Of a stretch of DNA of 58,216 nucleotides, positions 12,501 to 50,241 are shown one piece after another. The stretch is taken from the IMG/VR virus record IMGVR_UViG_3300042887_002068, positions 1 to 58,216 of that record; one strand, given 5' to 3'. The position numbers were made by a program, and so were the translations under genes. This stretch comes from a virus. Its lineage: Duplodnaviria > Caudoviricetes. The notes under the pieces were generated by a model. That model saw nothing but the letters and a program-made list of their open reading frames with translations. It searched no databases and was not told the origin of the DNA. Numbering within the stretch: the stretch's first letter is position 1; each line of letters begins with the position of its first letter.

Positions 12501-12763
12501 GGTCTAAGTTCTGATAGTTTATGAAAAAACTCACTTGTAATCTGAACTGCTTCTGGGCTCAAATCAACTTTGCTATGAAGTGTGTCGCCAGTATTGATAA
12601 TAACCGTGTTTTCTGGCGTCTTTGATATTTCAGCATACAGCTTCTCAAACGCTTCTCTATATTCTTCGTGGCGTTTTGTAAGACGAATATGTATGTCGGA
12701 TATATGAACAACATAATCAATCTTACTTAGTCCTATATCCAACTTTTCAAATGTATCTACCAT
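9557..12763 (-). CDS. Fused Mre11/SbcD nuclease - Rad50/SbcC ATPase (T4 gp47-gp46-like)
   Basis: Metallophosphoesterase motifs SDIH, GD, GNHD and GDIH; Walker A ANASGKSS; coiled coil with CKYC zinc hook; signature CSGME; Walker B VVDEGFSALD; IISH. Confidence 0.93.
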   Translation of the reverse strand: MVDTFEKLDIGLSKIDYVVHISDIHIRLTKRHEEYREAFEKLYAEISKTPENTVIINTGDTLHSKVDLSPEAVQITSEFFHKLSELRPTIIIAGNHDCLLTNATRLDSISPIVDNLKHNKLFYLKNTGLYGAANLLINNMSVFDDVTKYIKLKNVTKKIKTSFDTKIALYHGGVLNARTDIGYAVSDKTITNELFDGHDIAMLGDIHMAQDLQQYDETNEKPIIRYAGSLIQQNHGEALLGHGLSLWNIKQRTYSHVEIPNDYGYFTIDVDDGKLITDITTMPRKPKLRVRCKESVATEVKKVINELRKTYEITDLIYVRVDTDGATKVAQAQNISNLNQIGNIDYQNKIITDYLRKKFVDVMDDETIDTVCKINKELNTGLSKDDTSRNIRWKPVKFEFSNMFSYGEKNILDFTKLEDVYGLFAANASGKSSLMDALCFTVFDKSARAFKATHVMNSQKMSFSGKFTFEINNVHYVIEREGKRDKKNNVKVDVNFYKLNGDEKVSLNSEARRSTNEIIRDYLGDYDDFVLTTLALQGNQGSFIDMGQTERKELLSQFIGLNLFDKLASLAADKTKELSGAVKLFNKENGLKKISQTSNDIELLDSKINDLNAQKETQAAFKNEVDAEIDAKKATIVKLENVPTNIMPIVRERDNLVSKNKLANENIEKIDIEVSAKKPIYVDAANKLKEFPDDLKEKHDKYQTLSRTKQRIETEMDKLKTIVSEKLKKLAHLDKHEYDPNCKYCCDNIFVKDAISTRESLAADRTEAKELSDALSNIKTEMEAYAEYVSKYEESVKLKEILNTLTAFISKKELEKTNLKSGVERNDARIKELQDQIELYEKSKEIVESNKAIEDIVNELKIKASNISSKLKNIEKEHMDAYSKKVSAVDQLKESEKQLLTIQQYEDDLSAYQYYISAVGKDGVPYQIISDAIPKIEQEVNNILSHIVEFSVSIETDGKNVNVYIKYEDKKWPLELCSGMEKFISGLALRVALINVSNLPRPNYLVVDEGFSALDGHNIPMLHALFDYLKRNFDFIIIISHLDAMRDMVDKQLEIKKENGFSKIDNTV

Positions 12764-34353: not shown

Positions 34354-35874
34354 TTATGGCTGTGGACGACTAAAGCGTTCATAGTCCCTAATAAATGCTT
34401 CTGGAGGAGCTTCTGTGCTATTTGCTTTAGCAGGCTCTATTCTGTTTTGTAGTTGTTCGTTATATGGGTCTTTTTGTTCTATTTGCTGAGAAGGTTCTGG
34501 TGTAGGCTCTGGAGTCGGACTTGGTGTTGGCTCTGGAGTAGCAGAAGGAGTGGGAGATGGTGTTATTGTTGGTTCTGGTATAGCCGTTGGAGTTGGCGTT
34601 ATAACTGGCGTAGCAACTGGCAAAATCTGTTCTTTCTTTTTTCCTACTAATGTATTATACGCTAGAATCAAACACACCGCCAGCGGGTCAAACACAAGCA
34701 TGATAGACCATATGAAATAGTTTACTGCTGTATCTAATGGTACGCCAAGGCTCTTGGCAATAAACTTGAATGTGCCTACATCTGTTTTTACTATCTTGTC
34801 TTTATAATCTGTGTTTTGATTACGTAATGCTTGTATTTCGTTTTGATATTCTATTACCTTTTTCTTTCCGGCTTCTGCTAATTCATCCTTTTTGCTGTTT
34901 AGCGATGATACTTTATTGTCAGACTCTTTGTTGTATGCGTCTATGGACGCCATTATTTCTTCAATATCCTTTTCAAGTTTCTTGATGTTTGCTTCTATAT
35001 CTCCACGCTGACCTTTGCTTCTAGTTTCTATTACTGCTACACGGTCATTATACTCTTTCATCTGCGACGCATATTGCTCACGCAGTTTGGTTATTCTGTC
35101 TTGAGATGATTTTATCTTTTCATCTATTTCAGCACGTTCTTTTGCTTGACCTTCTTTTACAACTCTGGCTTGGTTTAGTCCATTTTTACCAAACAAACCA
35201 CCTGTGCCTTGGTCCATCCATTTCTGAACTTCTTTATCCAATATTTCCAATCTGGCATTGAATAGTTTTATCTGCTCAAGCTCTCTGGCTATATCAGTAT
35301 CAGTTGAAGATTTTGATATTTCAAGAGCTTGTTTTGCCGCTGCTATATCTGCTGAAGCATCCTGTGTTGTATTTGCTGATTTACGAATGCTTTCTATCTG
35401 CTGATTTTTTTGTGCTACAACTTGAAGTTTTTGTTCTATGAACTTTTTTCTGTTAGCATCAATGCCCGCTATTTCTTCTGAGTTATAATCAGACTTCTTG
35501 ATAGTTTCTATTTCTTTCTCAAACTCTGCTATCTTGGTATTATTAGATTCTATGTTTTGTTCGTATCCTTGAACGGCAATAGATGTTGCCGTGTATCCAG
35601 CACTCAAATATCCATATATACCAATGGAAGTTATGCCCATCAGAAACAATGTGGCAAGCAACATATATGATTTCATCCACCATCCTATTTCTTTCCACTT
35701 TTGTTTTAGAAACGTGGCAGTAATAATTTTACCAACTTCAAGGGCAGTTCCCATTATAATAATAGACAACCCGCCGCCAACAAAAAGCAGCTTCAATCCT
35801 ATGATGCTAAAATAAGCACCACAGATTGATATGGCAATACCGCTTAATAATACTAAAAATGCTAAGATATTCAT
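34354..35874 (-). CDS. Membrane protein with a long coiled coil and Pro/Thr-rich tail
   Basis: Three N-terminal TM segments (AYFSIIGL, LEVGK, MGITSIGIYGYLS), coiled coil, TM VFDPLAV, then TPTP/TPEP repeats. Confidence 0.8.
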   Translation of the reverse strand: MNILAFLVLLSGIAISICGAYFSIIGLKLLFVGGGLSIIIMGTALEVGKIITATFLKQKWKEIGWWMKSYMLLATLFLMGITSIGIYGYLSAGYTATSIAVQGYEQNIESNNTKIAEFEKEIETIKKSDYNSEEIAGIDANRKKFIEQKLQVVAQKNQQIESIRKSANTTQDASADIAAAKQALEISKSSTDTDIARELEQIKLFNARLEILDKEVQKWMDQGTGGLFGKNGLNQARVVKEGQAKERAEIDEKIKSSQDRITKLREQYASQMKEYNDRVAVIETRSKGQRGDIEANIKKLEKDIEEIMASIDAYNKESDNKVSSLNSKKDELAEAGKKKVIEYQNEIQALRNQNTDYKDKIVKTDVGTFKFIAKSLGVPLDTAVNYFIWSIMLVFDPLAVCLILAYNTLVGKKKEQILPVATPVITPTPTAIPEPTITPSPTPSATPEPTPSPTPEPTPEPSQQIEQKDPYNEQLQNRIEPAKANSTEAPPEAFIRDYERFSRPQP

Positions 35875-37575: not shown

Positions 37576-39801
37576 TTATGGACCATAACGTATGATGATT
37601 CTTACATTACTTGGTGCTGAAATACCTGTAACATTAACAAGTGCTGAACTACTATCCGTTGAACTAGTCATTCCATCAAAGGTACGTGTGGCGACAACTT
37701 TGTATGTTCCACCAGTATCTATTACGACTGGTGATACGGTGTATGTCGATGATGTAGCACCAGATATAGCCACATTATTTCTATACCATTGATATGATAT
37801 TGTACCTGCTCCAGAATCTGTAACAGGCGGGGCAGGCGTTGCGGACACGCCGCTTACATCCTGAAATCCAGTCGTTCCTCCATTAATGAGCGTACTGAAT
37901 GATAGTGGTGTTAATATACCGTTGGCTGTGTTTACTGTATACCACTGACCATTATCAAAGGATTGACCATACAACGTTGAACCGGCTGGACCGAAGGTGA
38001 TCTGAAGCCTACCTATTATCGGAGAACCAACTGTGCCTATATTCGTGGCAGCTATAGTACCACTTAACGGACCAGACGGCAGAGTCAGATTATAAAACAT
38101 AGAACCGTTGGAAGTAGTGGCATATAATGTACCATTACTAGTAATGGCTATGTCTCCAATATAATTGTTGTTTGTTGTAGGTATGCCGCCCGTGAGCGTA
38201 GCGGACGAAATGCCATTAGAAACCATTGTAGGGGTTCCTGATCCGTCATATTGTAATGCGACTCGCACCAGCATATGTGTACCCGGCATAATATACCAAT
38301 AAGCATTATTCCAATATGCTCCGTTGTCTGGTCGGCTGGTGGTCAATTGCCCCAAATTGACTGGTGTAGAATTGGCAGCTTGGTTCCAATACCACAAAGA
38401 CGCCAGACCACTTCCACTCGGATTGGGTGCCGCAAAAAATACTTGACCTCGGGTAGTATCAAACGCTATTCCGTTTATTGCGTTTGTTGATGTTGCACCT
38501 ACAAGAGTAGACACATCTCGCACAGCCCTCTTTGTTCCAGTATCGCTAATTTCATAAATATTGTTGTCTGTACCAACAGTATAATAATACACCGATACTG
38601 ATGCGAAGGATGATAGTGTAAGTGTATTTCCAAACTCAACACTTGTAGCAACAGGCTGAACGGTAAAGATAGGTGCCTTTAATGTTCTAACAACGTTTAC
38701 TGTTGCTGTGTTGCTGTCTGTAAAACTGGATACACCATCTATAGTACTGGTTGCTCTAAGTTTATACGCACCAGAGTCTACACTGGCAGCGGCACTCACA
38801 GTATATGATCTAGAAGTTGCTCCTGTTATAATAACATCATCTTTGTACCATTGATATGTTGGAGTTGGTGTACCAGTAGCCAACCCAGATAATGTAAATG
38901 ATTGATTGAGATCAATGGTCACGGAGGATGGTTGAGCAGTAAATACTGGTGCCGCAAGGGTTCTAACTACGGTTACTGTTACTATATTACTATCAACTGA
39001 ACTGGATGCTCCGTTTAGTGTATTGGTGGCAACAACCTTATAATCGCCGCCATTGGCACTAACAGCAGAACTTACGGTATATGATGTAGATGTTGCTCCA
39101 GTTATAGCGACGTTGTCTTTATACCATTGGTATGTTGGAGTTGGAGTGCCGGTCGCTAATGCCGATAGTGTAAATGACTGTGTAAGATTTACTGTTGCGG
39201 CGACGGGTTGCGTAGTAAATGTGGGCGGCACCAAAACTTCTATGACAGTAACTGCCACTGCATTACTGTCCGTAGACACTACCGTTCCGCTAACAGTATT
39301 ACTTGCTGATACTTTGTATGTGCCCGCGTCAGCAAGAACTGCCGATGATACTGTATATGTAGCAGATGTTGCACCTGATATAGCGACATTATTTTTAAAC
39401 CATTGATATGTTGGTGGAGAGTCGCCCGTGGCAAGAGATGATAGTGTAAAAGATTGGCCGACAGATGCGTTAGTAGCAACTGGTTGTAGTGTAAAAACCG
39501 GCGGATTGACAACACTTAAATTTGCAATATTTGAAAGACTACTTCCTAACGAGTTACTAACTTCTACGGTATATGCGGCAGCATCCGATATTGTAACATT
39601 CGCCAGCACATACGATATAGATGTTGCACCGGCAATATTCGTTCCTCCTTTTTTCCACTGATATGTAAACGGGGGTGTTCCGCTGGCGGTAGCATCAAAA
39701 GTAACAGTCTGACCAACTTTAGCAACCGGACTAACGTCTTGAGCATATGCCATACTGCATAATGCAAGTATATAAAAAAGTATCTTGATATAGTTCTTCA
39801 T
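37576..39801 (-). CDS. Secreted multi-immunoglobulin-domain protein with an inserted beta-propeller
   Basis: Signal peptide ending AYA|Q; five Ig repeats (PxFTxQP...ATGxPxPTYQWyK...GATSxxY...DxGxY), the fifth interrupted by a ~250-aa propeller-like region. Confidence 0.85.
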   Translation of the reverse strand: MKNYIKILFYILALCSMAYAQDVSPVAKVGQTVTFDATASGTPPFTYQWKKGGTNIAGATSISYVLANVTISDAAAYTVEVSNSLGSSLSNIANLSVVNPPVFTLQPVATNASVGQSFTLSSLATGDSPPTYQWFKNNVAISGATSATYTVSSAVLADAGTYKVSASNTVSGTVVSTDSNAVAVTVIEVLVPPTFTTQPVAATVNLTQSFTLSALATGTPTPTYQWYKDNVAITGATSTSYTVSSAVSANGGDYKVVATNTLNGASSSVDSNIVTVTVVRTLAAPVFTAQPSSVTIDLNQSFTLSGLATGTPTPTYQWYKDDVIITGATSRSYTVSAAASVDSGAYKLRATSTIDGVSSFTDSNTATVNVVRTLKAPIFTVQPVATSVEFGNTLTLSSFASVSVYYYTVGTDNNIYEISDTGTKRAVRDVSTLVGATSTNAINGIAFDTTRGQVFFAAPNPSGSGLASLWYWNQAANSTPVNLGQLTTSRPDNGAYWNNAYWYIMPGTHMLVRVALQYDGSGTPTMVSNGISSATLTGGIPTTNNNYIGDIAITSNGTLYATTSNGSMFYNLTLPSGPLSGTIAATNIGTVGSPIIGRLQITFGPAGSTLYGQSFDNGQWYTVNTANGILTPLSFSTLINGGTTGFQDVSGVSATPAPPVTDSGAGTISYQWYRNNVAISGATSSTYTVSPVVIDTGGTYKVVATRTFDGMTSSTDSSSALVNVTGISAPSNVRIIIRYGP

Positions 39802-39974: not shown

Positions 39975-40421
39975 TTATAACAGTTTGTGTGTCTTTGGTC
40001 TTTGCTCCTCAATCTTCAGTTTAGGAAGATCAACTTTTATTGTTCCGTTTGTGAAGTCGGCTTTGATCTTATTTTTGTCAATGCCTTCGCCCACGCTGAA
40101 CGAGCGTGTGAAACTAGAACGCTTAATTTCTTTATATAGGTACTTTCCTTTAGTTGTGTTTTCATTGTTAGTTTTTTTACCTCCTCGTATTACAAGCGTG
40201 TCGCCTTCAAGATCTACAGAAACATCTTCCTTGCTTAATCCAGCAACATCCGCTTCAAGAACATACTTGTCATCATATTCAACAACATCTACTTTTGGGT
40301 AACTGTGCTTGGTATAAGATCCAGCGTAAGGTGTTACGCCGAAACTGTTGAAAACATCGTCAAATAGACGATCAAATGGGGTGAGAAACTCATCCCGTGT
40401 ATATCTGCTTAGTGTACTCAT
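39975..40421 (-). CDS. Small heat-shock protein (Hsp20/alpha-crystallin)
   Basis: YPKVDVVE...LEADVAGLSKEDV...SSFTRSFSV...IKADFTNGTIKVDLPK. Confidence 0.95.
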   Translation of the reverse strand: MSTLSRYTRDEFLTPFDRLFDDVFNSFGVTPYAGSYTKHSYPKVDVVEYDDKYVLEADVAGLSKEDVSVDLEGDTLVIRGGKKTNNENTTKGKYLYKEIKRSSFTRSFSVGEGIDKNKIKADFTNGTIKVDLPKLKIEEQRPKTHKLL

Positions 40422-40528: not shown

Positions 40529-40553
40529 AAAAAAGAGCACCAAACTGGTGCTC
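40529..40553 (-). terminator. Intrinsic terminator after the HD gene
   Basis: GAGCACCA-GTT-TGGTGCTC-TTTTTT on the minus strand. Confidence 0.8.
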
Positions 40554-40583
40554 CGTTTTGTCACACGCTTGAGACTAGGTGTC

Positions 40584-41258
40584 TCAACTTTCTCGCTTCG
40601 CAACGTCGTGTTCAGCGTTGCAGGCCATATAGTCTGCAACGTGAATAAGACGAGCAAGATTGTTCTTTAGACCCTTTTCTGGGTCATAAGTCTTCAGATA
40701 AAATTCAGCCGCTTCATCATACATTCCATCAGACAACTTGATCGCCAATGTTTCTTTCCAAGTAAGCACAATACCAAACCGCTGTAGATTGTATAATGCT
40801 CTATCCGTAACTCTCCAGAACTGATTTTTTGTGTTATTCTTAAAGAGCAATCCCTGCTTATTCATGGACCATTCGTCTGTATTGGGAATATAATATGGCC
40901 CAGTTTCATCGCCAAGTTTCCCCAAATCGTGGTGAAGTGCCGCCATAATACGCTCCTCTTCTGTATAATCAATCTCGCCGCCAAGAGTTTCATAAAGCTT
41001 CTGCACTCCGCGACTTGCACGTTCTACATCAAGTACGTGATGAATATATCCTCCGATATAAGCATTATGATAATTCTTTTTTCCAGAAGCGGGGGCAGTT
41101 GCCAGTTGTAATCCAAGATTATTCTCGGCGTACATATTCAACAACTTTTCAAGTCTATCTCCGCTAAACTTTTCCTTCAAAAATTCAAGAAAGTATTCGT
41201 AATTTTCCTGAACTTGATTTTCTGTCAAATCTGAACCTGTATGTAGTGTTTTATTCAT
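40584..41258 (-). CDS. HD-domain phosphohydrolase (YhaM-like HD)
   Basis: HNAYIGGYIHHVLDV, ALHHDLGK, IHVADYMA. Confidence 0.88.
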   Translation of the reverse strand: MNKTLHTGSDLTENQVQENYEYFLEFLKEKFSGDRLEKLLNMYAENNLGLQLATAPASGKKNYHNAYIGGYIHHVLDVERASRGVQKLYETLGGEIDYTEEERIMAALHHDLGKLGDETGPYYIPNTDEWSMNKQGLLFKNNTKNQFWRVTDRALYNLQRFGIVLTWKETLAIKLSDGMYDEAAEFYLKTYDPEKGLKNNLARLIHVADYMACNAEHDVAKRES

Positions 41259-41312: not shown

Positions 41313-43010
41313 TCAACACTCTTTTCGTATTTCTTTGGAGTAATGATACACTCTATTATGATTTACTAATGATGCCATAAGTACTGCACTACGCAGTCTT
41401 CCTTTTTTCATTGTTTGATATGCGTGGCTCATGATAGTTTGCTCAAACGGAGAAGCATATACCGTTTCAAGAAATACCTTATAATTTCCCGCCTTTGTCA
41501 TCACACTTGGCCAATTGCTATAATATACATCGCCAATCAAATAACTTACGCCATCTATGCAGCCTGAATTTTTCCATTTCATTCTATGTGTACCATCTGG
41601 GAAATATTTGTTTTTTACATTCTGTGGCACATTGTGCCATGCCCATTGCTTGTGATGATCGCCAAAAAATTCACTGAATGAAATTTTTATAAAGTCCAAT
41701 TTTTCTTCTTCAACGATATTGATGCATTTATCCACCCAGTTGTCTATATGCATATTCAGTCCATTTTTACATAACACATTCTTATCCTGCATAAGCATAT
41801 CATCTTCAAACCATATGATATATTTTGACCCACTATCGTGAAAATGCTGTGCTGCCCACTGACGTGCTCCGCATACGCCCATATTTCCTTTACGTATCAA
41901 TTCAAATCCATACTTCTTGGCAATATCATCAAATGCTGGTTTGGTTGTTTCGTCCGTGCTATTATCTATAAGATATTTGTTGTTTATACGCAACAATTCT
42001 GGATTATATTTTTCCATACTATCTATCAATAGCAATAGTTGCTGTGGCAAATTAAAGCAGGTGATATACAAGTTTACTCCCTTGCCCGACTTGTTCATGG
42101 CAACTTCTTCTTCGCTTTGAAAATACTCAATATCCTCTGGAACGTCTTGTTTTGGTATGCTTATTTCATACTTCGGAACTGGCATCTGCTTTACTCTTTC
42201 AAAAAATGTTGAAACCAGCCCGTTTCCTTCTATCATTTCTATATTGGTCAATTCTGGGCAAAGGTATGTAATAAGCGTGAAAATACTTTCTTCTGTGCCC
42301 ATATATCCTTCACTCAACGTATTGTTTAGAAGATTATAGTATATTCCATTTATCTGTGATAATACTTTCTTGTTTCCGCCAAAAAATCCTCCTCGCGCAA
42401 CACGGTTTACTTTTGCGTTTGCGTATCTGTTCATTGCATCAATCTTGAAGCCGTGTATCTCGCTGGTTGTTTCGTATGGATAGCAAACGAACAAGAACTT
42501 CTTCAACATCGGCTCTAATTTTTGAATCACGTTGTCGTGACTAAAATAGCCAGGATGCACCGTCTGGGTAAGGCCAGCATCTATCCAGCAATAATTTTCA
42601 GAATCAAACGGGTTGAAAATTGCTGCGTCGTTTAACAAGAACATCTTGCTCATTACAAGCGGGTTATATAATTCAAGTTTTGCTTGCGTTGACTCTGCCA
42701 GCCATCCTACTTGATTGTACCAATTGGGATCTTGACGTATTTTATTTACTTTATCATACAGACTAAACCACGTTCTGAAATCTTCGGGTTTTTTAGTACG
42801 AACGTCTGTGCCAACGGACCCTTCTCTTGCTTTTAAGACAAAATCGACGTGCGACTCATCCACATACACTAATATCGGTGTGTTTTTACACGCACGCAAT
42901 AGTTTATCAAAGTGCTGAAGATATTGACTAAATGGACGCTTGAATCCAGTATCCATTTCTCCACGCTTCAAATCAAATAGTCCTGTCACCAATGTTGTAT
43001 TATAGTTCAT
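41313..43010 (-). CDS. HtrL/YibB(WlaTC)-family glycosyltransferase fused to a GT-A (GT2-like) domain
   Basis: TTLVTGLFDL, SKMFLL..A..NPFDS..CWIDAG, GGFFGG, GTEE; second domain LIDNS...NMGVCGAR...WFEDD. Confidence 0.8.
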   Translation of the reverse strand: MNYNTTLVTGLFDLKRGEMDTGFKRPFSQYLQHFDKLLRACKNTPILVYVDESHVDFVLKAREGSVGTDVRTKKPEDFRTWFSLYDKVNKIRQDPNWYNQVGWLAESTQAKLELYNPLVMSKMFLLNDAAIFNPFDSENYCWIDAGLTQTVHPGYFSHDNVIQKLEPMLKKFLFVCYPYETTSEIHGFKIDAMNRYANAKVNRVARGGFFGGNKKVLSQINGIYYNLLNNTLSEGYMGTEESIFTLITYLCPELTNIEMIEGNGLVSTFFERVKQMPVPKYEISIPKQDVPEDIEYFQSEEEVAMNKSGKGVNLYITCFNLPQQLLLLIDSMEKYNPELLRINNKYLIDNSTDETTKPAFDDIAKKYGFELIRKGNMGVCGARQWAAQHFHDSGSKYIIWFEDDMLMQDKNVLCKNGLNMHIDNWVDKCINIVEEEKLDFIKISFSEFFGDHHKQWAWHNVPQNVKNKYFPDGTHRMKWKNSGCIDGVSYLIGDVYYSNWPSVMTKAGNYKVFLETVYASPFEQTIMSHAYQTMKKGRLRSAVLMASLVNHNRVYHYSKEIRKEC

Positions 43011-43011
43011 A

Positions 43012-44613
43012 TCAACGTTTTTTTATAAATACATTTTCCACAATTAACCCATCCATGCGAGTATTATCAAACACGTTAAATGCTTCTTTGATGGTGGACA
43101 ATACTGGCTTACCATTTACATTAAAGCTTGTATTAAGAAGCACGCCAATGCCATTTATTTTTTTGACTTCTCCAATTAAATCATATAACCACGGATTTAC
43201 TTCTCTTCGCAAGGTCTGCACTCTTGCAGTTTCATCTACGTGTGTTATTGATTTTAGTTTTTCCTTATACTCAGTTCTTACTTTGAACGCAAAGCTCATA
43301 TAAGGAGATTCTTGTAGCATTTCGAAGTATTGGTCCGCGTCCTCATATCTCACTACGGGAGCAAACGGTCTATACCATTCTCTGTTTTTAACTTTCGCGT
43401 TTAGTATGTCTTTCATTTGAGGAAAGCTTGGATCGCATATGATACTTCTGTTCCCCAACGCTCGTGGCCCGTGTTCGGCATTTCCTCGTGCGACACCAAC
43501 AATCTTTCCGTCGCAAATATATTTGGCAAGTGTATCAAGATTTACATCGTGAGTTATATCGCACGTATACGAATGCTCGTAAATGTAATATCCAATAGAA
43601 TCTATATCCAAAAGCGGCATACCGGAGTAAATTAATTCAACGGGCTTTTCTGGTTTTAATACATGAAGAATTCCTCCCGCTGCCAACCCACAATCACTTG
43701 GGTTAGGTGGAATAAACATATTTCTGTTGTATCTCTTTTTTATTTCCGTGTTTAGCAATACATTAAGTGCACACCCACCCGTCATTCCTATTGCATAATC
43801 TGGGTATTTCTTGATATGTTCATCAACAACTTCAAAAAATACATCTTCAAATGCCTTTTGTGAAGTGGCGGCAATATCATATGCCATTTGACCATCAATT
43901 CTATCTTTTGCACTAAAAATTATTCCCGTTTTTGCACTTAGCTCTGCGATTTTTTCCTGTATGTTTTTTGTGTATACCTTGATTTTATAAAAATCCTTGA
44001 AGGCATTAAGCCATTCTGTTCTTATGGTTCCATACCCACACAATCCCATCAATTTTCCGCTATACACAAGATTGCCATCATCAAACCCAGATTCTTGTCT
44101 TATTGGTTTCAGATAGTGACCAAAAGTCATATATGCACCCATATCATATTCAGCAGAAAACAACAATTTTGGTGGCTGCTGTTTGCTTTCACACGCATAT
44201 CCGTTGAAAAATCCATCATTTCCACCGCCGTCAAATGATATTATTACCATTTTTTCATATGGCGATTGATAATATGTTCCAACCGTATGCAAATAATGGT
44301 GAGTTAAATCGTGTAATGGCTGCTTGTGTGGAATATTGTCTTCGTATTTTACATATATGCTTTCGCCGTTTATTACATTAACTGAATGAGAATAGCTGGT
44401 GACACAGGTATCAAACATTTCTATTCCATATCTACGCTTGATATATTCACATATTTGCTTTACGTGTATGTCTCCGACTGGAATAGATTTATACTGACTA
44501 ATTCCAGAATTTTTATATCCGTTGAATCTTTCTGCTTCAACTACATAAATTTTATCGCCTATATTAAATGCTATTGCACCGTTGTGGGAGCCGTGGATTG
44601 AAACTGTTTTCAT
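43012..44613 (-). CDS. O-carbamoyltransferase (NodU/CmcH/TobZ family)
   Basis: EAER, HHYLH, DGGG, GKLMGL, GGCALN, EHGPRALGNRS, KNREWYRPFAP, HVDETARVQ, LLNTSFN. Confidence 0.93.
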   Translation of the reverse strand: MKTVSIHGSHNGAIAFNIGDKIYVVEAERFNGYKNSGISQYKSIPVGDIHVKQICEYIKRRYGIEMFDTCVTSYSHSVNVINGESIYVKYEDNIPHKQPLHDLTHHYLHTVGTYYQSPYEKMVIISFDGGGNDGFFNGYACESKQQPPKLLFSAEYDMGAYMTFGHYLKPIRQESGFDDGNLVYSGKLMGLCGYGTIRTEWLNAFKDFYKIKVYTKNIQEKIAELSAKTGIIFSAKDRIDGQMAYDIAATSQKAFEDVFFEVVDEHIKKYPDYAIGMTGGCALNVLLNTEIKKRYNRNMFIPPNPSDCGLAAGGILHVLKPEKPVELIYSGMPLLDIDSIGYYIYEHSYTCDITHDVNLDTLAKYICDGKIVGVARGNAEHGPRALGNRSIICDPSFPQMKDILNAKVKNREWYRPFAPVVRYEDADQYFEMLQESPYMSFAFKVRTEYKEKLKSITHVDETARVQTLRREVNPWLYDLIGEVKKINGIGVLLNTSFNVNGKPVLSTIKEAFNVFDNTRMDGLIVENVFIKKR

Positions 44614-45284
44614 TTTCTAAATTCGGTTGCAAATTCCGCATAGGTGGACGTTGTATAATAATGATATGTAGTTTTTCTCTTTAGTAGATCGGAAAAATCT
44701 TCAACGGGCCATCCGTGATTTATAAGAATTGGATACGAGGATATGAAATTTCTGGTTTTTTGCAGAGTCGTATAATAATAATGATCCAATTGATCATACT
44801 TTTCATATGACCAATTAAGAATATCTTGGTACATACTTTCTTTTACGACCAGCGCGTGCGCCGATTTGGCAGATTGAATCTTTCCTACATTTTCGTCCAA
44901 TTTTACCAACGGAGAATGTAATATTGTACCAAAAAACATTGCATCCCAATTTATTTTTTCGGATTGCTCCAAAAATTTCAAAACGGTGTCTTTGTATGGC
45001 AAATGATAATCTCCAATTCCAGTGGATGGTGGATCCATCACATAAAAATCATCTTCACATATAAACACAGATTTCCATCCACGAGATATGGCAATGCGTA
45101 CAATTTCTTTGTGCGCTTCTCCACATCCCGCATACTCACCTTTTACTATTCCCGGCATCCTTTCCATACCAGAAATTTCAAACTTAGCAAATTGGTCTTC
45201 ACATTGCTTCTTGCGATCAGTGCGATGATCCATATTGATATAAAACCCACCATCCGCTACTTTTTTATTGTAAAATGTGATCAT
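44610..45284 (-). CDS. Glycosyltransferase family 25-like
   Basis: YINMDHRTDR, GCGEAH, ICEDD, SAHALVV. Confidence 0.85.
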   Translation of the reverse strand: MITFYNKKVADGGFYINMDHRTDRKKQCEDQFAKFEISGMERMPGIVKGEYAGCGEAHKEIVRIAISRGWKSVFICEDDFYVMDPPSTGIGDYHLPYKDTVLKFLEQSEKINWDAMFFGTILHSPLVKLDENVGKIQSAKSAHALVVKESMYQDILNWSYEKYDQLDHYYYTTLQKTRNFISSYPILINHGWPVEDFSDLLKRKTTYHYYTTSTYAEFATEFRK

Positions 45285-46585
45285 AGATGTCCAACAATTC
45301 TATCTCCCCAGTTCTTAGATTGACTATGTGGCCACACAACCCAATGATGCGGCTTTTCTGATGTGTTGAATGTTCTCCAAAGCTTGATATATTTATCTCC
45401 TTTTGGATCTCTTGCTTCTTTCAATAATCTGTCTATTTCGGCTTTGTCCGCATCTTGTCTATGTATCACCGAGTTATCTTCTCGCTCAAACGCAACGCAC
45501 CAAAAATCATAATCATCCAGTTTAAACCCGTTAATCGGTAGATCTATACAATGCTTGAATATTTGCAAGAATGAATCTTCCCATTCTTTTTCAGTTTTGT
45601 ATTTGTGATATTTGTTGGGAGGGTATGCTTTGTCTATTGTTTCTTGTTGAACCGCACGTTTTCCAAAATGTAACCCTGCATACTTTTCATAATCTCTCAA
45701 CGTTCTGACTTTTCCAAATCCATATTTGCCCCATTTTATGGTTTCGTGTTTTTCGCCATCCATAGAGAACAATATACGATTGCGTCGATGGCACAAATGA
45801 TTTCTTTCTCCCCAATCTTTTTTGTCTGGAATTTTACTGGTATTTCCCGCACCGTGGTCGTCCCAATGCTTTGTTCTTCCTTTACGAGTATATTCGTGCC
45901 AAGCAACTAACCCGTGTGGATGAAACAAATCATATCCCCAAGTAAATGCACGCACTGCAATACTTATCTCTTCACCGTGAAAATAATATTCAGGATCATG
46001 TGGAACTTCTTTACAAAACTTTCCGGTTGTAAATGCAAAATGTGCAGAATAAAACCTAGCCGGAACAGGAGCGGAAAGTTCTTTCCAGTTATCTATAGAA
46101 GCTGGCAAAAAGAATACAGCACCTTCTGGAATAAATCTATCAAAATCCATTCTCCAAGGAGTTTGTACTCTTGCTTCCGGATCTTTGTCTGGATCAAACG
46201 AAGGAATATATCCAGTAAGTAATGGCTTCTTGTGTCCCATTTTTTGCAGTTGTTTATACATTCCAATAATCACTTCGTCCCAGTCTTTAACAAAACGATG
46301 ATGTGAATCTAATTGCAATGTATATTCTTCATCTTCATACCGCTGTTGTATTTGATTACGTGCCCAACAAGCACCTTTACTTTCCATATATGGAATATCA
46401 ATAATTTTTACACTTGGAAGATCTTTGATCTCGTCAATTTTTTCTTCCGGTGAATGTTGCCAAGCAATACAAAAAACAAGATTTTCTGGATGCTTTGCAT
46501 TTGCTATGCAGTCCTTTATTGTAGGAACTAGTTGAGGATCACGATAGGCCGCTATTTGTATGAAGATTTTTCCATTAGAACTCAT
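45281..46585 (-). CDS. GT60-like polypeptide alpha-N-acetylglucosaminyltransferase (Skp1-Hyp/mucin GlcNAc-T family)
   Basis: IFIQIAAYRD, AKHPENL, SKGACWAR, YTLQLDSHHRFVKDWD, VPHDP..FHGEE, RAFTWGYD, WHEY. Confidence 0.88.
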   Translation of the reverse strand: MSSNGKIFIQIAAYRDPQLVPTIKDCIANAKHPENLVFCIAWQHSPEEKIDEIKDLPSVKIIDIPYMESKGACWARNQIQQRYEDEEYTLQLDSHHRFVKDWDEVIIGMYKQLQKMGHKKPLLTGYIPSFDPDKDPEARVQTPWRMDFDRFIPEGAVFFLPASIDNWKELSAPVPARFYSAHFAFTTGKFCKEVPHDPEYYFHGEEISIAVRAFTWGYDLFHPHGLVAWHEYTRKGRTKHWDDHGAGNTSKIPDKKDWGERNHLCHRRNRILFSMDGEKHETIKWGKYGFGKVRTLRDYEKYAGLHFGKRAVQQETIDKAYPPNKYHKYKTEKEWEDSFLQIFKHCIDLPINGFKLDDYDFWCVAFEREDNSVIHRQDADKAEIDRLLKEARDPKGDKYIKLWRTFNTSEKPHHWVVWPHSQSKNWGDRIVGHL

Positions 46586-46594
46586 ATAACATTT

Positions 46595-46624
46595 AATTTA
46601 CTATATTCTTGTATATATACAAGA
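46595..46624 (-). promoter_or_regulatory. Promoter TTGTAT-N16-TAAATT overlapped by an 18-bp perfect palindrome
   Basis: TCTTGTATATATACAAGA at 46607-46624, just upstream of the GT60 ATG. Confidence 0.45.
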
Positions 46625-46638
46625 TATAATAAATAATT

Positions 46639-47433
46639 TTAACAAGATCTTGCAGATAAATATGCTGTACCCGATGCGTTCCTAGTTATAATATAACCGC
46701 ATGTTAAATTGGTGTATGTTCCGCCAGGTACACGATTAATAAGTATGAAATATTGTTCCTCTCCAACTTGGTTAATGTAATAAAATTCTATTACTCCATT
46801 AATACCAGCAACAGCATCAATTTGTTTTGTAGGCAGCAATCCATTGCCAAAATTTGCGGTAATTACAACATTATCAAATGTTGCAAACCCCGTTGCAACT
46901 GGATTAAACAAGCGTGGGTTAGATAATACCACCTCTTCTGGTGCAGTCCAATTTATTAAATGGGAGTTGGCTGCGGGAATTGCTTGTAGCTGCATTTCTC
47001 CAGTTCCGTCATTTGTTATCTGCCCAGTTGGACTGTCTCCATCTATTCTTGATACCGTTCCGTTTCCATTTGCAACGATTGTATATTGAATTTCCGTTTT
47101 AAATGGCGTGCTTGTTGGCGTCGGGGTAGGTGTTCTCGAACTACCCATCGCGGAGGTTGGAGTTATCGTTGGAGTGATTGAAATTGTAGGCGTGGCAGTA
47201 GGAAACGCAGAAGGTTGTGGAGATGGAGTTCTTGACACAATTGGAGTTTTAGATGGTGTAATAGACACCGTTTGTGTTGGAGTTGGAGTGGGTGGTATTT
47301 CTTTCCATCCAATGTTTTTGCTATCATCCGAAACTTTTACGTATAATTTTCCATCATCCGTTGTTATGTCATTTCCTTGCAGACCAAAAACGGAAGAATT
47401 TGGATTTCCGTGAATAACAATTTTTTCTTGCAT
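46639..47433 (-). CDS. Mucin-like (Pro/Thr/Ser-rich) virion accessory protein with a C-terminal beta-sandwich
   Basis: N-domain GNPNSSVFG...KLYVKVSDDSKNIGW; ~65-aa TPTP tract; InlB B-repeat-like AIPAANSHLINW...ITANF. Confidence 0.75.
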   Translation of the reverse strand: MQEKIVIHGNPNSSVFGLQGNDITTDDGKLYVKVSDDSKNIGWKEIPPTPTPTQTVSITPSKTPIVSRTPSPQPSAFPTATPTISITPTITPTSAMGSSRTPTPTPTSTPFKTEIQYTIVANGNGTVSRIDGDSPTGQITNDGTGEMQLQAIPAANSHLINWTAPEEVVLSNPRLFNPVATGFATFDNVVITANFGNGLLPTKQIDAVAGINGVIEFYYINQVGEEQYFILINRVPGGTYTNLTCGYIITRNASGTAYLSARSC

Positions 47434-47436
47434 AAA

Positions 47437-47793
47437 TTATATAGAAAATTCCGGTTCACTCGAACTTGGGGTGACAGTTGGAGTTCTGGTCGGAGTCACA
47501 GATATTGTCGGGGTTACGGTTATGGTTGGAGTAACAGTACTTGTTATACTCGGAGTAGGAGTAGTAGTAGAAGATGGAGTTGGAGATAATGGAACCGTGG
47601 CAGATGGAGTGGGTGTTGGAGTAGGTGTCGGAGTCAATGTACTATTATCTTGACCAACATATGTCCATCCAATATTTCTGCTATCATCTTTGTATTTTAT
47701 ATATAAATTTCCATTGTCCGATCCGAGCAATGAACCAATTATACCGAACACGGATTTTTCTGGATTTCCTCTGGGTGGAATGCTTCTTCTCAT
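47437..47793 (-). CDS. Mucin-like protein, paralogue of the 46639-47433 N-terminal domain
   Basis: GNPEKSVFG...NLYIKYKDDSRNIGW followed by about 60 aa of almost only T/P/S/V/I. Confidence 0.75.
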   Translation of the reverse strand: MRRSIPPRGNPEKSVFGIIGSLLGSDNGNLYIKYKDDSRNIGWTYVGQDNSTLTPTPTPTPTPSATVPLSPTPSSTTTPTPSITSTVTPTITVTPTISVTPTRTPTVTPSSSEPEFSI

Positions 47794-47796
47794 TTT

Positions 47797-50241
47797 TTAT
47801 GGAGTAATAGTTACGTCTACTTCGTAAAATGAACCTGGGTACACGGTACCAGAAGAAGCAAATACGCCAGTTGGATATTTTATCCAGTATAATTGGAATC
47901 TATATATGCCGGGAGACGGAGGCAATATTTTACCATATTGATTGTTCCATCCAACTGCTCTCTGTTCAGTTCCACCGGGCAAAGATTGCCAAGCCGAGCC
48001 GTCCCAGTAAAGTGCTTTACATCTCAATCTATAAGAACCCGTAGCGGTTGCCGCCAAAACCGTAGGATCCGTTGTATAAATATATGGAGGATTGTTATAC
48101 GAGAATGTGGTGGATGACCCCGTGGTAGTACTCAAATATACATTTGGATGTCCAGATGCGGTATAAGCAGGTGCAGTCACTGGAGTAAATCCGGACGCAG
48201 TTGCTATAGACATTGTTACCACGGACCAGGGCGTTGGTTGTACCGTTGGATTATAAGAACTATTATATGTTACCCAATAAAGTTCGGCTGGCCACACCCC
48301 AACTGCCGGTGGAAATATTTCCGAGTAATTATTATTGAATGCTACGGTTCTTTGCTGTGAATTTGAGTTAAATGCGCTGGCCAATTCGTTTCCTGTATTA
48401 CCAGAAATCTTACATCTCAATCTATACCTGAATGAACTTAGTACAGATGAATTTCCTGTATAAACGTATGGCGGATTGTTTAAAGAATACGTTGTATTAG
48501 ACAAATACACGTCGCTGCCAGGAAATGGTGGAGGAGAGAACGTAGAAGCTGTCGCTATGCTCATCGTAATTGTTGTAAATGGTGCACCACCATTCACCGA
48601 TATTACAGGGTAATTTCCATAAATGTCTGGTGTATCTCCGTATTCAACATAATACAAATCTGTAGTATACAATCCAACTGGAGGAACGTCTATTGGAACA
48701 TAGTTAGTATTAAACACATCTGCTCTTTGCTCTAATGCCAAGTTTGGAGCAACGTCCGTCAATTCTGTTGCTTTTACTCTTAACTTCCATCGAGTCAGTG
48801 ATGTTATTGTAGAATTCGTAGTAAATACTGTAGGAGAGTCGTCTTCTCTGAAACTGTTTGCGCTGAGATAAATACCCGGCGGCAATGGAGGTGTCGGAGT
48901 AGGAGTTCCCGTTTGCGTAGGAGTTGGCGTCGGCGGCATCGGAGAAGGTGTTATTGTTACAGTAGGTGTAGGAGTTGGCGTAGGCGAAGGTGGAATATAA
49001 TTTATTGCTCCATACTTTGATGTATATCCTTGGAAACTGAACGTACACGGAGCAGCACTGGCACTATAAAATACATACAAGCTTCTATCCGTATGTGCTA
49101 CACCAAGTTCCAGTAATGGCAATACGCTTCTGCCATAAGATGCACTTACCAGTGGAACTCTGTTATTATTGAATGAATATATTCCACTATCTCCCTCTAC
49201 CGCTACATCCGCTGTAGATCCTATAGAAAACAATGGTTGACCCGGAGAGTATACAAAACAATCGGTTATTACGTAATTTTCCGGTAGAACATTTCTTTGC
49301 GTTCCATTCCCCAAATAACCAGAAGTTCCATCGCTGAAGAATATTAGACCAAACTCCTTGGTAGGACTTGTTGCTTCTGCGCCTTCTCTTGGTATCAATA
49401 GATGATTGTCTCCAATAGAATCTAGCCATTGTGTTGGACCTGGATTAAGGTTCTCTGGTCTATATGAAGAAACCAGCGAGGCGTCGTTGTTTCGTACTCC
49501 ACCATAATAATTTTGAGTCACTTTTGTTCCACTCAATGCGGCGTTGAATACATGTCCTTCATAAATGACAGAGTTGATGTTCCAATGACTTCCGCTCTGC
49601 CCATTTCCCATAGTAGTAAACGAACTGCTGATATAACTTGGCGCACCAGACAACGTACCGACTAAAGCGGAATTTATATAAAATCTAAATGTGCCACTAT
49701 TTTCTTTTGTTATCGTGGCTTCAAATGCTCTGTCCGGATATAATTTTATAAAATCTGGGTATTCTATTATTTTTTCCGTTGTACCATCATTTACGTATCC
49801 AATCAAACTACTTGATTTTACACCGATGTATGCTCTGCTACCATAGTCTGCCATTCCTACTACTTGCGAACCTACGCCAAATAAAACTCTACTACCCGTG
49901 TCGTTTAAAAGTGCGTCCGATGGTATAAATGCTTTAACGGTCAAAGAAAAATTATTTCCCAAGTCATTTGCTTTTCCGTAGCAATACATGCTTAATTCAT
50001 CCAATGGAGCATAATTAGCCGCAAAAGATAATCCGTTAGAACTTTGATAACCGTGCTGCGGCACTGCAAAGTTAGCAAACCCACCAGAAACAACATATTC
50101 GGCCAAATCTGCCGCCGAAATTTTCTTTGTTTCCCCAGTAGGACTTGTTAATTCACTAACATCTACAATAGGAAGCCAGTCGCCATTTGCTACATTTGTT
50201 GAAGTAAGTGTGCGTAGTTCAGTTGTTTTCTGGTTGGCCAT
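47797..50241 (-). CDS. Fibre-like protein: fibre N-terminal motif, LamG-like domain, Pro/Thr linker, three C-terminal repeats
   Basis: KTTEL...DWLPIVD...ETKKIS anchor; FYINSALVG...VFNAALS; PPSPTPTPTPT linker; 3x YLS...Px(V/I)(Y/F)T...R(Y/W)xLRxK...QR...PP..G...LY repeat. Confidence 0.75.
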   Translation of the reverse strand: MANQKTTELRTLTSTNVANGDWLPIVDVSELTSPTGETKKISAADLAEYVVSGGFANFAVPQHGYQSSNGLSFAANYAPLDELSMYCYGKANDLGNNFSLTVKAFIPSDALLNDTGSRVLFGVGSQVVGMADYGSRAYIGVKSSSLIGYVNDGTTEKIIEYPDFIKLYPDRAFEATITKENSGTFRFYINSALVGTLSGAPSYISSSFTTMGNGQSGSHWNINSVIYEGHVFNAALSGTKVTQNYYGGVRNNDASLVSSYRPENLNPGPTQWLDSIGDNHLLIPREGAEATSPTKEFGLIFFSDGTSGYLGNGTQRNVLPENYVITDCFVYSPGQPLFSIGSTADVAVEGDSGIYSFNNNRVPLVSASYGRSVLPLLELGVAHTDRSLYVFYSASAAPCTFSFQGYTSKYGAINYIPPSPTPTPTPTVTITPSPMPPTPTPTQTGTPTPTPPLPPGIYLSANSFREDDSPTVFTTNSTITSLTRWKLRVKATELTDVAPNLALEQRADVFNTNYVPIDVPPVGLYTTDLYYVEYGDTPDIYGNYPVISVNGGAPFTTITMSIATASTFSPPPFPGSDVYLSNTTYSLNNPPYVYTGNSSVLSSFRYRLRCKISGNTGNELASAFNSNSQQRTVAFNNNYSEIFPPAVGVWPAELYWVTYNSSYNPTVQPTPWSVVTMSIATASGFTPVTAPAYTASGHPNVYLSTTTGSSTTFSYNNPPYIYTTDPTVLAATATGSYRLRCKALYWDGSAWQSLPGGTEQRAVGWNNQYGKILPPSPGIYRFQLYWIKYPTGVFASSGTVYPGSFYEVDVTITP

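Follow-up and report, generated by a model that had tools for sequence, protein, structure and literature searches.

Introduction

To our knowledge, protein glycosylation encoded by phages is documented for very few of them. In mycobacteriophages, phage transferases reportedly O-glycosylate structural proteins of the phage itself in the host cytoplasm (Freeman et al. 2023, as cited in PMC12619734), and the virions of the Xanthomonas jumbo phage XacN1 were reported to contain "at least two glycoproteins", for which the authors suggested two glycosyltransferases, including ORF334, as the makers (PMC5852040). Glycosyltransferase family GT60 comprises polypeptide alpha-N-acetylglucosamine (GlcNAc) transferases related to family GT27, every characterised member named in the sections of PMC8724618 concerned with the family being such an enzyme; one form is a soluble cytoplasmic enzyme acting on Skp1, and the same article carries the proposal that the mucin-type enzymes of the Golgi derive from cytoplasmic prokaryote-like transferases. 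Here we describe a 9-kb region (positions 41,313 to 50,241) of a 58,216-base IMG/VR virus record, IMGVR_UViG_3300042887_002068 (the whole of which is called the window below), in which a GT60-family enzyme and three further enzymes are encoded next to three Pro/Thr (PT)-rich proteins. The region could well encode a cytoplasmic, mucin-type O-glycosylation of the phage's own PT-rich appendage proteins, a reading that we hold with middling confidence.

The window enzyme falls into the same Pfam family as the eukaryotic GT60 enzymes (Dictyostelium, Trypanosoma cruzi, Skp1 Gnt1; E 1.3e-72). Like the Skp1 enzyme it appears to be soluble and lacks a signal anchor, and as in the Skp1 pathway, later steps would fall to a fused two-domain transferase, here an HtrL/GT2 fusion (PMC8724618). 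As in eukaryotic mucin systems, Thr/Pro tracts resembling mucin domains are at hand, in this case encoded by the neighbour genes. Unlike the eukaryotic enzymes, the window enzyme is viral and belongs to a clade found almost solely on phage contigs, and unlike the Skp1 system it has no PF13640 partner gene in the relatives searched. The arrangement also differs from that of the mycobacteriophages, in which glycans sit on the C-termini of capsid and tail-tube proteins (PMC12619734), in that the candidate acceptors are PT linkers of fibre-like proteins, the initiator is a GT60 enzyme and the cassette of further enzymes is hypervariable, a comparison that leaves the enzyme families aside.

Glycosylation of phage virions is therefore not new in itself and was suggested by the XacN1 authors; what is new is the combination of GT60, PT-rich genes and a hypervariable cassette, together with its breadth. 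No description of this combination was found in the literature searched, the coverage of which excluded subscription journals. The main text of the XacN1 paper makes no mention of GT60, PT tracts or the cassette (PMC5852040), one preprint places GT60 among viral auxiliary genes, and the aquatic jumbo phages named "moraphage" carry four glycosyltransferase groups in their core genome, whose function is left open in the relevant part of that article (PMC12619734).

The window, with an estimated completeness of ~24% and long open reading frames (ORFs) that lie nearly all on the minus strand, appears to be a piece of a freshwater jumbo phage genome; we take it as a jumbo-phage fragment because its relatives reach 297 kb at a CheckV completeness of 100 (the close relative G001). 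The 9-kb region is present almost whole (at least 92% of sampled words) in 24 lake-water metagenome DNA runs, no RNA run was among the listed sequencing runs that contain it, and a megablast search with the 8.9-kb sequence found no counterpart among 50,697 phage records. A scan of IMG/VR with the GT60 enzyme yielded 233 stretches encoding relatives, the best 80 of which (60-100% identity) were combined with XacN1 and Xoo-sp13 into the 82 loci compared here.

Organisation of the locus

A preliminary description of this DNA had given the coordinates and the shared direction of seven ORFs, and all seven were recovered on the minus strand at these positions. The features of the region and of its 3' flank are as follows (lengths of proteins in amino acids, aa).

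47797..50241, minus strand: fibre-like protein, 814 aa (ORF, PT tract, Laminin_G_3-like); candidate substrate
47437..47793, minus strand: short Pro/Thr/Ser protein, 118 aa (45-aa N-terminal domain and tract); candidate substrate
46639..47433, minus strand: Pro/Thr protein, 264 aa (45-aa N-terminal domain, tracts, C-terminal domain); candidate substrate
46586..46638, minus strand: spacer of 53 nt from the last PT-rich gene to GT60, holding a 16-nt palindrome
45281..46585, minus strand: GT60-family glycosyltransferase, 434 aa (Pfam PF11397, phrog_24687, fold)
44610..45284, minus strand: GT-A enzyme, GT25-like, 224 aa (fold, invariant EDD); proposed glycan extender
43012..44613, minus strand: NodU/CmcH/TobZ-type O-carbamoyltransferase, 533 aa (Pfam, phrog_1601); proposed to carbamoylate a sugar hydroxyl
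41313..43010, minus strand: HtrL_YibB and GT2 fusion, 565 aa (Pfam, NCBIfam); 3' bracket of the cassette
40584-41258, minus strand: HD-hydrolase gene, 3' of the glycosylation operon
40534..40554, minus strand: terminator-like hairpin of 9 pairs, the first on this strand downstream of the operon, after the HD gene

The four enzyme genes follow directly on the three PT-rich genes and are translationally coupled, as had been claimed, with two ATGA start/stop overlaps and one TGA-N-ATG junction with a 1-nt gap present in the sequence. A pattern scan of the minus strand from 51137 to 40554, the 53-nt spacer included, gave no terminator-like site, and since the first hairpin lies after the HD gene, the genes from PhoH through HD may form one transcription unit.

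The GT60 enzyme and its relatives

The 434-aa protein matches the Pfam GlcNAc profile PF11397 with 245.7 bits (cut-off 21) over profile positions 2-45 and 98-350 of 352, and phrog_24687 at 8.9e-176, which places it within the family. Residues D93-x-H95 and H230, which we take to be the metal ligands, are invariant in 42 aligned homologues down to 36% identity. The AlphaFold model (pLDDT 95.9) consists of a GT-A catalytic domain and a C-terminal alpha/beta domain of ~100 aa, and in a fold search ranks 1-31 of the PDB matches listed are all GT27 polypeptide N-acetylgalactosamine (GalNAc)-transferases, the first other enzyme appearing at rank 32. The top folds are those of human GalNAc-T1/2/4/7/10/12, fly PGANT9 and Toxoplasma TgGalNAc-T3, with E-values of 2e-9 to 6e-8 and TMq of 0.40-0.48 for the GT27 folds. 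Mucin-type GalNAc-transferases act on Thr/Pro-rich tracts. In a phmmer search of PDB sequences, neither the GT60 enzyme nor the GT25-like enzyme or the HtrL fusion had a meaningful match. The view of the preliminary description that characterised GT60 enzymes are polypeptide alpha-GlcNAc transferases is upheld by the literature on the family (PMC8724618), and the nearest folds are polypeptide GalNAc-transferases; from its family and fold, we propose that the window enzyme would be an initiating polypeptide N-acetylhexosamine (HexNAc) transferase, with GlcNAc as the sugar.

The closest predicted viral structures are proteins annotated as "Glycosyltransferase, GlcNAc" from uncultured tailed phages, Megaviridae environmental sequences and a Pandoravirus protein; at ~300-350 aa, the majority of them lack the C-terminal domain of ~100 aa that the window enzyme has. 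The family is large, with at least 7,418 of the 8,000 candidates scored reaching E <=1e-10 and with 4,433 clusters at 50% identity, and it includes giant-virus versions as well as giant proteins with several GT60 units. In the library of 50%-identity representatives, P0122, P0123, P0128 and others are 1,600-2,460 aa long with 4-5 separate GT60-like stretches. The clade of the window enzyme is nearly absent from cellular genomes, with three matches in 185,579 prokaryote species genomes, all on short contigs of metagenome-assembled genomes, and within the phage collection only four records have a GT60 match, namely the Xanthomonas jumbo phages XacN1 and Xoo-sp13 and the Stenotrophomonas phages CM1 and RAS14.

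Association of GT60 with Pro/Thr-rich proteins

The three PT-rich proteins named in the preliminary description are confirmed by the composition of their tracts, which are real and not a product of chance. The tract of the 814-aa protein spans residues 414-457 (13 T, 2 S and 18 P in 44), that of the 118-aa protein spans residues 49-115 (24 T, 11 S and 16 P in 67) and contains TPTITVTPTISVTPTRTPTVTP, and the 264-aa protein has three tracts within residues 46-114. A DNA pattern coding for (Thr-Pro)3 has six matches in the 58-kb window, all on the minus strand within these three ORFs, and none in 100 shuffles of the window. PT-rich ORFs make up 4 of the 45 called in the window, and three of the four are those directly upstream of GT60.

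The 814-aa protein is built of a LamG/ConA-like N-terminal part of ~410 aa, a 44-aa Pro/Thr linker and three C-terminal repeats. Its nearest clusters in the ESM Atlas are Laminin_G_3, mostly viral (score 0.95, 177 shared features), the Pfam match to Laminin_G_3 is weak (E 0.014), and its N-terminal half is 36-57% conserved in other loci while the C-termini diverge. The 118-aa protein consists of a conserved 45-aa N-terminal domain and the 67-aa Pro/Thr/Ser tract with almost nothing more, and the 264-aa protein shares this N-terminal domain and ends in a domain with an InlB B-repeat-like match to Flg_new_2 (E 9.4e-4, below the cut-off). All 38 ORF entries with the 45-aa domain, found among 2,930 ORFs from loci L005-L036 and G001 with near-duplicate loci included, carry a PT tract right after it. 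No hydrophobic segment indicative of a membrane span is present in any of the three proteins. From this domain architecture, the three PT-rich proteins are putative virion appendages, and we regard all three as candidate substrates for glycosylation.

If these proteins are substrates, GT60 and PT-rich genes might be expected to go together, and a test of their co-occurrence had been called for. For 76 of the 82 loci this could be assessed, two having been dropped because no single GT60 frame was called and four because GT60 lay too near the locus start. A PT-rich, co-directional ORF ending no more than 700 nt upstream of GT60 was found in 27 of these 76 loci, against a background of 79 of 1526 other ORFs (5%; Fisher p 1e-14), and the enrichment persists when GT60 is collapsed at 95% identity (15/48 clusters; Fisher p 3e-8 against 79/1526). 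The upstream PT-rich proteins form at least seven groups without similarity to each other once the tracts are masked; within the groups, homology is limited to the N-terminal part and the C-termini differ, a build that we infer to be typical of phage fibre proteins. The complete relative G001 has 4 PT-rich ORFs among 363, three of which are no more than 7 kb from GT60, with a further small ORF between the PT-rich ones near GT60 added by a strict pattern search.

The association was also approached from the other side, by collecting IMG/VR contigs with a (Thr-Pro)5-coding pattern (the first 80 loci met, from which 69 records were searched for PF11397). PF11397 was present on 9/69 of these contigs and on 0/69 control contigs with (Lys/Glu-Pro)5 (Fisher p 0.003), and on six of the nine positive contigs the distance from GT60 to a (TP)4 tract is 5 kb or less, on the other three 12-30 kb. 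Strict (TP)4 tracts occur in three of five GT60-positive records (5-23 matches) and in none of five large GT60-negative contigs, numbers too small to carry weight. Among members of the window's own clade, traced by a baseplate gene as marker, no GT60-negative case was found, since all five contigs that reach the place carry GT60 and the seven contigs without GT60 all end before the expected position.

Several observations weigh against the reading that the phage glycosylates its PT-rich appendages. The co-occurrence is an enrichment and not a rule: directly upstream of GT60, a PT-rich ORF is missing in 49 of the 76 informative loci, and ~25 of the 82 lack one over a distance of 10 kb. The adjacency is largely confined to one clade: when GT60 is clustered at 75% identity, only one of the 14 clusters is uniformly PT-adjacent and two are mixed. 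No strict (TP)4 tract occurs in the GT60-bearing records G002 (complete) and G003, and the nearest looser PT-rich ORF of G002 is 8 kb from GT60. The reverse test becomes 7/16 against 0/8 (p 0.054) when limited to contigs of at least 60 kb, and because the (TP)5 and control samples, each the first met by the scans, differ in habitat and contig size, the contrast is suggestive and not a controlled comparison. The 814-aa protein, whose virion location is read from its architecture, has no match by tblastn in the 50,697 phage records and none among the PHROGs. Finally, PT linkers are ordinary spacers of modular proteins, and their proximity to GT60 may come only from its placement beside fibre genes.

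These points lend some weight to the alternative that the enzymes glycosylate other proteins, such as capsid, tail, decoration or host proteins, with the PT tracts as plain linkers in the same variable region. The loci without a PT-rich ORF upstream (49/76) and the lack of strict TP repeats in G002 and G003 are in keeping with it, as are the mycobacteriophage glycans on capsid and tail-tube C-termini (as cited in PMC12619734) and the scattered PT-rich ORFs of XacN1, whose reported glycoproteins are not named in the main text (PMC5852040). Against it stand the upstream enrichment in at least seven unrelated PT-rich groups and the reverse enrichment, which is seen with Thr-Pro and not with Lys/Glu-Pro linkers. 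The mucin-type relatives by fold are, moreover, enzymes generally understood to act on Thr/Pro-rich tracts. Because many GT60 loci have no PT-rich neighbour, we consider this alternative unlikely but not negligible.

In the cultured jumbo phage XacN1, the ORF334-ORF330 cluster encodes a GT60 homologue (ORF334, 51% identity), a carbamoyltransferase (42%) and an HtrL/GT2 fusion (43%) in the same order as the window. Unlike in the window, the cluster does not adjoin PT-rich genes, the nearest being 8.8 kb away, and the carbamoyltransferase is longer; both that of XacN1 (ORF333, L003 11409-13706) and that of Xoo-sp13 have 765 aa, ~230 aa more than the window's. XacN1 has ~16 distinct PT-rich ORFs, two more matches being weak duplicates in the terminal repeats, and several of them adjoin tail-sheath, baseplate and "structural protein" genes. 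A caution is that the XacN1 glycoproteins are named only in a supplementary figure and that the numbers of the PT-rich ORFs do not appear in the main text (PMC5852040).

The variable cassette and its enzymes

An HtrL/GT2 orthologue (at least 35% identity) lies on the same strand downstream of GT60 in 62 of the 82 loci, and the two are separated by one to seven co-directional genes over 0.6-6.5 kb. In the remaining 20 loci no orthologue reaches this threshold, some of the contigs ending first. The 194 proteins of these cassettes form 43 clusters, and representatives of the 20 largest were scanned, with the carbamoyltransferase cluster left aside. The matches include a rhamnosyl O-methyltransferase/CmcI (RMNT_CmcI) cluster in 21 loci and two GT10 fucosyltransferase clusters in seven and five loci, and further GT2-like, GT1-type, FkbM methyltransferase and GT25-like proteins, and 11 of the 20 representatives have no Pfam match at all and two more have only sub-threshold matches to unrelated families. 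A GT25-like gene is present in 19/62 cassettes and a carbamoyltransferase in 12/62, and phages whose GT60 enzymes are 79-93% identical carry differing cassettes. GT60 and HtrL/GT2 are thus the constant parts, and the GT25-like and carbamoyltransferase genes are optional members. Given these counts, the "carbamoylated O-glycan" of the preliminary description, with its carbamoyl and GT25-like steps, would be confined to the subgroup of this phage.

The families assigned earlier to the operon enzymes, for which profile searches had been advised, stand for GT60, for the O-carbamoyltransferase and for the HtrL_YibB and GT2 domains, while the GT25 assignment fails by profile and stands at the level of fold only. 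The 224-aa protein reaches E 0.039 and 14.2 bits with Pfam Glyco_transf_25, and a homologue 17 bits, against a cut-off of 24, and it has no NCBIfam match. Its AlphaFold model (pLDDT 81.6) has as best solved fold the human GT25 enzyme COLGALT1 (E 1.3e-9 to 1.4e-8, TMq 0.54-0.60), followed by Mimivirus R655, and residues E77-D78-D79 are invariant in 10 homologues; because the TM scores are moderate, we call the predicted enzyme GT25-like by fold and not a member of GT25. The 533-aa protein matches Carbam_trans_C (4.7e-64, 215.5 bits) and Carbam_trans_N (1.6e-20, 74.3 bits), both above cut-off, as well as phrog_1601 (1.3e-119), and scores 155.9 bits with the NCBIfam NodU equivalog, whose cut-off is 1000; by its profile matches it is to be classed as a member of the carbamoyltransferase family and not as a NodU orthologue. 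The 565-aa fusion has an HtrL_YibB domain at residues 4-262 (Pfam E 6.7e-18, 65.7 bits against a cut-off of 24.1; 70.4 bits with the NCBIfam YibB equivalog, cut-off 264.9) and a GT2-type GT-A domain at ~316-410 (Glycos_transf_2, 1.9e-5, 25.1 bits, narrowly above the cut-off of 23.3). All four operon enzymes lack hydrophobic segments of the kind expected for a membrane span, and the action in the host cytoplasm postulated earlier is consistent with such soluble enzymes.

The composition of the cassette bears on a further alternative, in which the soluble transferases would act at the inner membrane face on the lipid A-core, lipooligosaccharide or another surface glycan of the host, for example to block superinfection or to keep progeny off debris, and the PT-rich genes would be mere neighbours. 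The HtrL_YibB family is uncharacterised and is linked to lipooligosaccharide loci, in which GT25 genes are also numerous (PMC4172580), so that two of the four enzyme families are those typical of outer-core loci, a point that counts against protein as the target; the variability of the cassette likewise resembles O-antigen and outer-core loci and their variable gene content (PMC4172580), a "glycosyltransferase family 9" gene lies 5 kb from the GT60 cluster of XacN1, and many GT60 loci have no PT-rich neighbours. Such loci differ from the present one, however, in their lipid-linked and export steps: no flippase, polymerase, ligase or lipid-carrier transferase family was found among the 24 proteins scanned (the four window enzymes and the 20 cassette representatives), and the conserved partner here is GT60, which is not part of lipooligosaccharide loci as far as the relevant part of PMC4172580 goes. 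This conserved initiator has polypeptide transferases as its characterised family members (PMC8724618) and as its nearest folds, its clade is essentially viral (three matches in 185,579 prokaryote genomes), it is enriched on Thr-Pro-coding contigs (9/69 against 0/69), and the solved structure closest in fold to the GT25-like enzyme is that of a protein (collagen) galactosyltransferase. We therefore judge envelope remodelling to be improbable, yet a more serious rival than the modification of DNA.

The carbamoyltransferase raises this last alternative, namely that the enzymes decorate hydroxymethylated bases of the phage DNA against restriction. A phage carbamoyltransferase with the same Pfam domains converts 5-hydroxymethylcytosine (5hmC) into 5-carbamoyloxymethylcytosine (PMC8670742), multi-enzyme DNA glycan systems have been reported (as cited in PMC12619734), and in XacN1 and Xoo-sp13 the cluster adjoins DNA polymerase and RNase H genes. 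Unlike in the 5hmC system, the neighbours in the window are glycosyltransferases and not genes of nucleotide metabolism, and the complete relatives G001 and G002 have no PF00303 thymidylate-synthase/hydroxymethylase gene as a partner. In the ThyA homologues from XacN1 and G003, the PFN motif retains the Asn that is tied to ordinary dUMP enzymes, carbamoyltransferases flanked by glycosyltransferases lay on unmodified contigs (both PMC8670742), and the fold of GT60 is that of polypeptide transferases. Neither a ThyA-family protein with Asp nor a TET/JBP protein was found in the records searched, with the window itself representing ~24% of its genome; a Tet_JBP search gave no match in G000, G001, G002, G003 and XacN1, nor in any control genome, so that absence of this family is not shown by it. 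On balance we give DNA hypermodification very little credence.

Proposed mechanism and implications

Cytoplasmic glycosylation of the PT-rich appendages is the reading to which the evidence from the families, the GT60 fold, the PT association and the XacN1 glycoproteins points, and the central claim of the preliminary description is partly supported; it is held back by the 49 of 76 loci without a PT-rich neighbour. Late in infection, as fibre proteins are newly made, GT60 would use UDP-GlcNAc to attach alpha-GlcNAc to Thr (or Ser) residues of their PT tracts. The chain would be lengthened by the GT25-like enzyme and by both domains of the HtrL/GT2 fusion, and the carbamoyltransferase, using carbamoyl phosphate and ATP, would cap a sugar hydroxyl, so as to give a flexible, glycan-coated stalk on the virion appendages. 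Hydroxyproline is disfavoured as the acceptor: PF13640, the 2OG-Fe(II) oxygenase family taken here as a marker of prolyl hydroxylases, had no match in G000, G001, G002, G008 and XacN1, in a search directed at this oxygenase family alone, and this seems to favour Thr/Ser. That close relatives differ in their cassettes implies exposure of the glycan to selection from outside, for example in adsorption, by proteases or through host recognition. Stiffening, resistance to proteases or grazers, and receptor selection were put forward in the preliminary description as putative roles.

More tentatively, we speculate that freshwater and soil jumbo phages might possess a complete cytoplasmic mucin-type pathway acting on "phage mucins", with the bracketed cassette as a hypervariable glycan locus that diversifies virion sugars, and that viruses may be a major reservoir of GT60/GT27 enzymes and possibly a conduit for them; this wider picture we regard as doubtful. 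Were it true, variation of the glycan would come in addition to that of the fibre protein sequences, as a second source of differences in host range or evasion. If the phage does glycosylate its own appendages, protein glycosylation would be common in environmental jumbo phages by way of the enzyme lineage that starts mucin-type glycans in eukaryotes, and would be a further variable in phage adsorption, stability and recognition. The locus also bears on the proposed cytoplasmic, prokaryote-like origin of the mucin-type enzymes of the Golgi. In practical terms, it would offer a soluble and tractable polypeptide HexNAc transferase of small size whose natural substrates are short, the 118-aa one among them near minimal, and the cassettes a natural library of glycan-tailoring enzymes.

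Neighbouring genes and further observations

The spacer before GT60 contains the perfect 16-nt palindrome CTTGTATATATACAAG at 46608-46623; as a repeated motif of the window it was rejected, the one match elsewhere having three mismatches, which is at chance level. On the 3' side of the operon, an HD-domain phosphohydrolase (40584-41258) and an Hsp20-type small heat-shock protein (39975-40421) are both encoded on the minus strand, and the two genes stay linked to the operon in many relatives, at 57-99% and 49-100% identity, respectively. Further along the same strand, 37576-39801 encodes an Ig-like protein of 741 aa with at least five repeats, matches to Hoc-like and tail PHROGs and a signal-peptide-like start, MKNYIKILFYILALCSMAYAQ, an unusual feature in a decoration protein of the virion, given its assembly in the cytoplasm.

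The fourth PT-rich ORF of the window (34354-35874, minus strand, 506 aa) has its tract, PTITPSPTPSATPEPTPSPT, near the C-terminus and weak SbcC-like and spanin-like matches; its product is possibly a coiled coil, and its homologues sit 4-5.5 kb downstream of GT60 in relatives. Elsewhere in the window, the 1,068-aa ORF at 9557-12763 (minus strand) combines SbcD-like (residues 18-379) and SbcC-like (292-1066) PHROGs in what seems to be a fusion of nuclease subunits, an open-ended ORF at 1-7272 (minus strand) of at least 2,424 aa runs past the window start, and two ORFs of 1,560 and 1,076 aa are without a PHROG match. In XacN1, PhoH (ORF188) precedes the PT-rich ORF190 by two genes (L458, 98733-100556), at a site 120 kb from the GT60 cluster of that phage, an order that echoes the succession of PhoH and PT-rich genes in the window.

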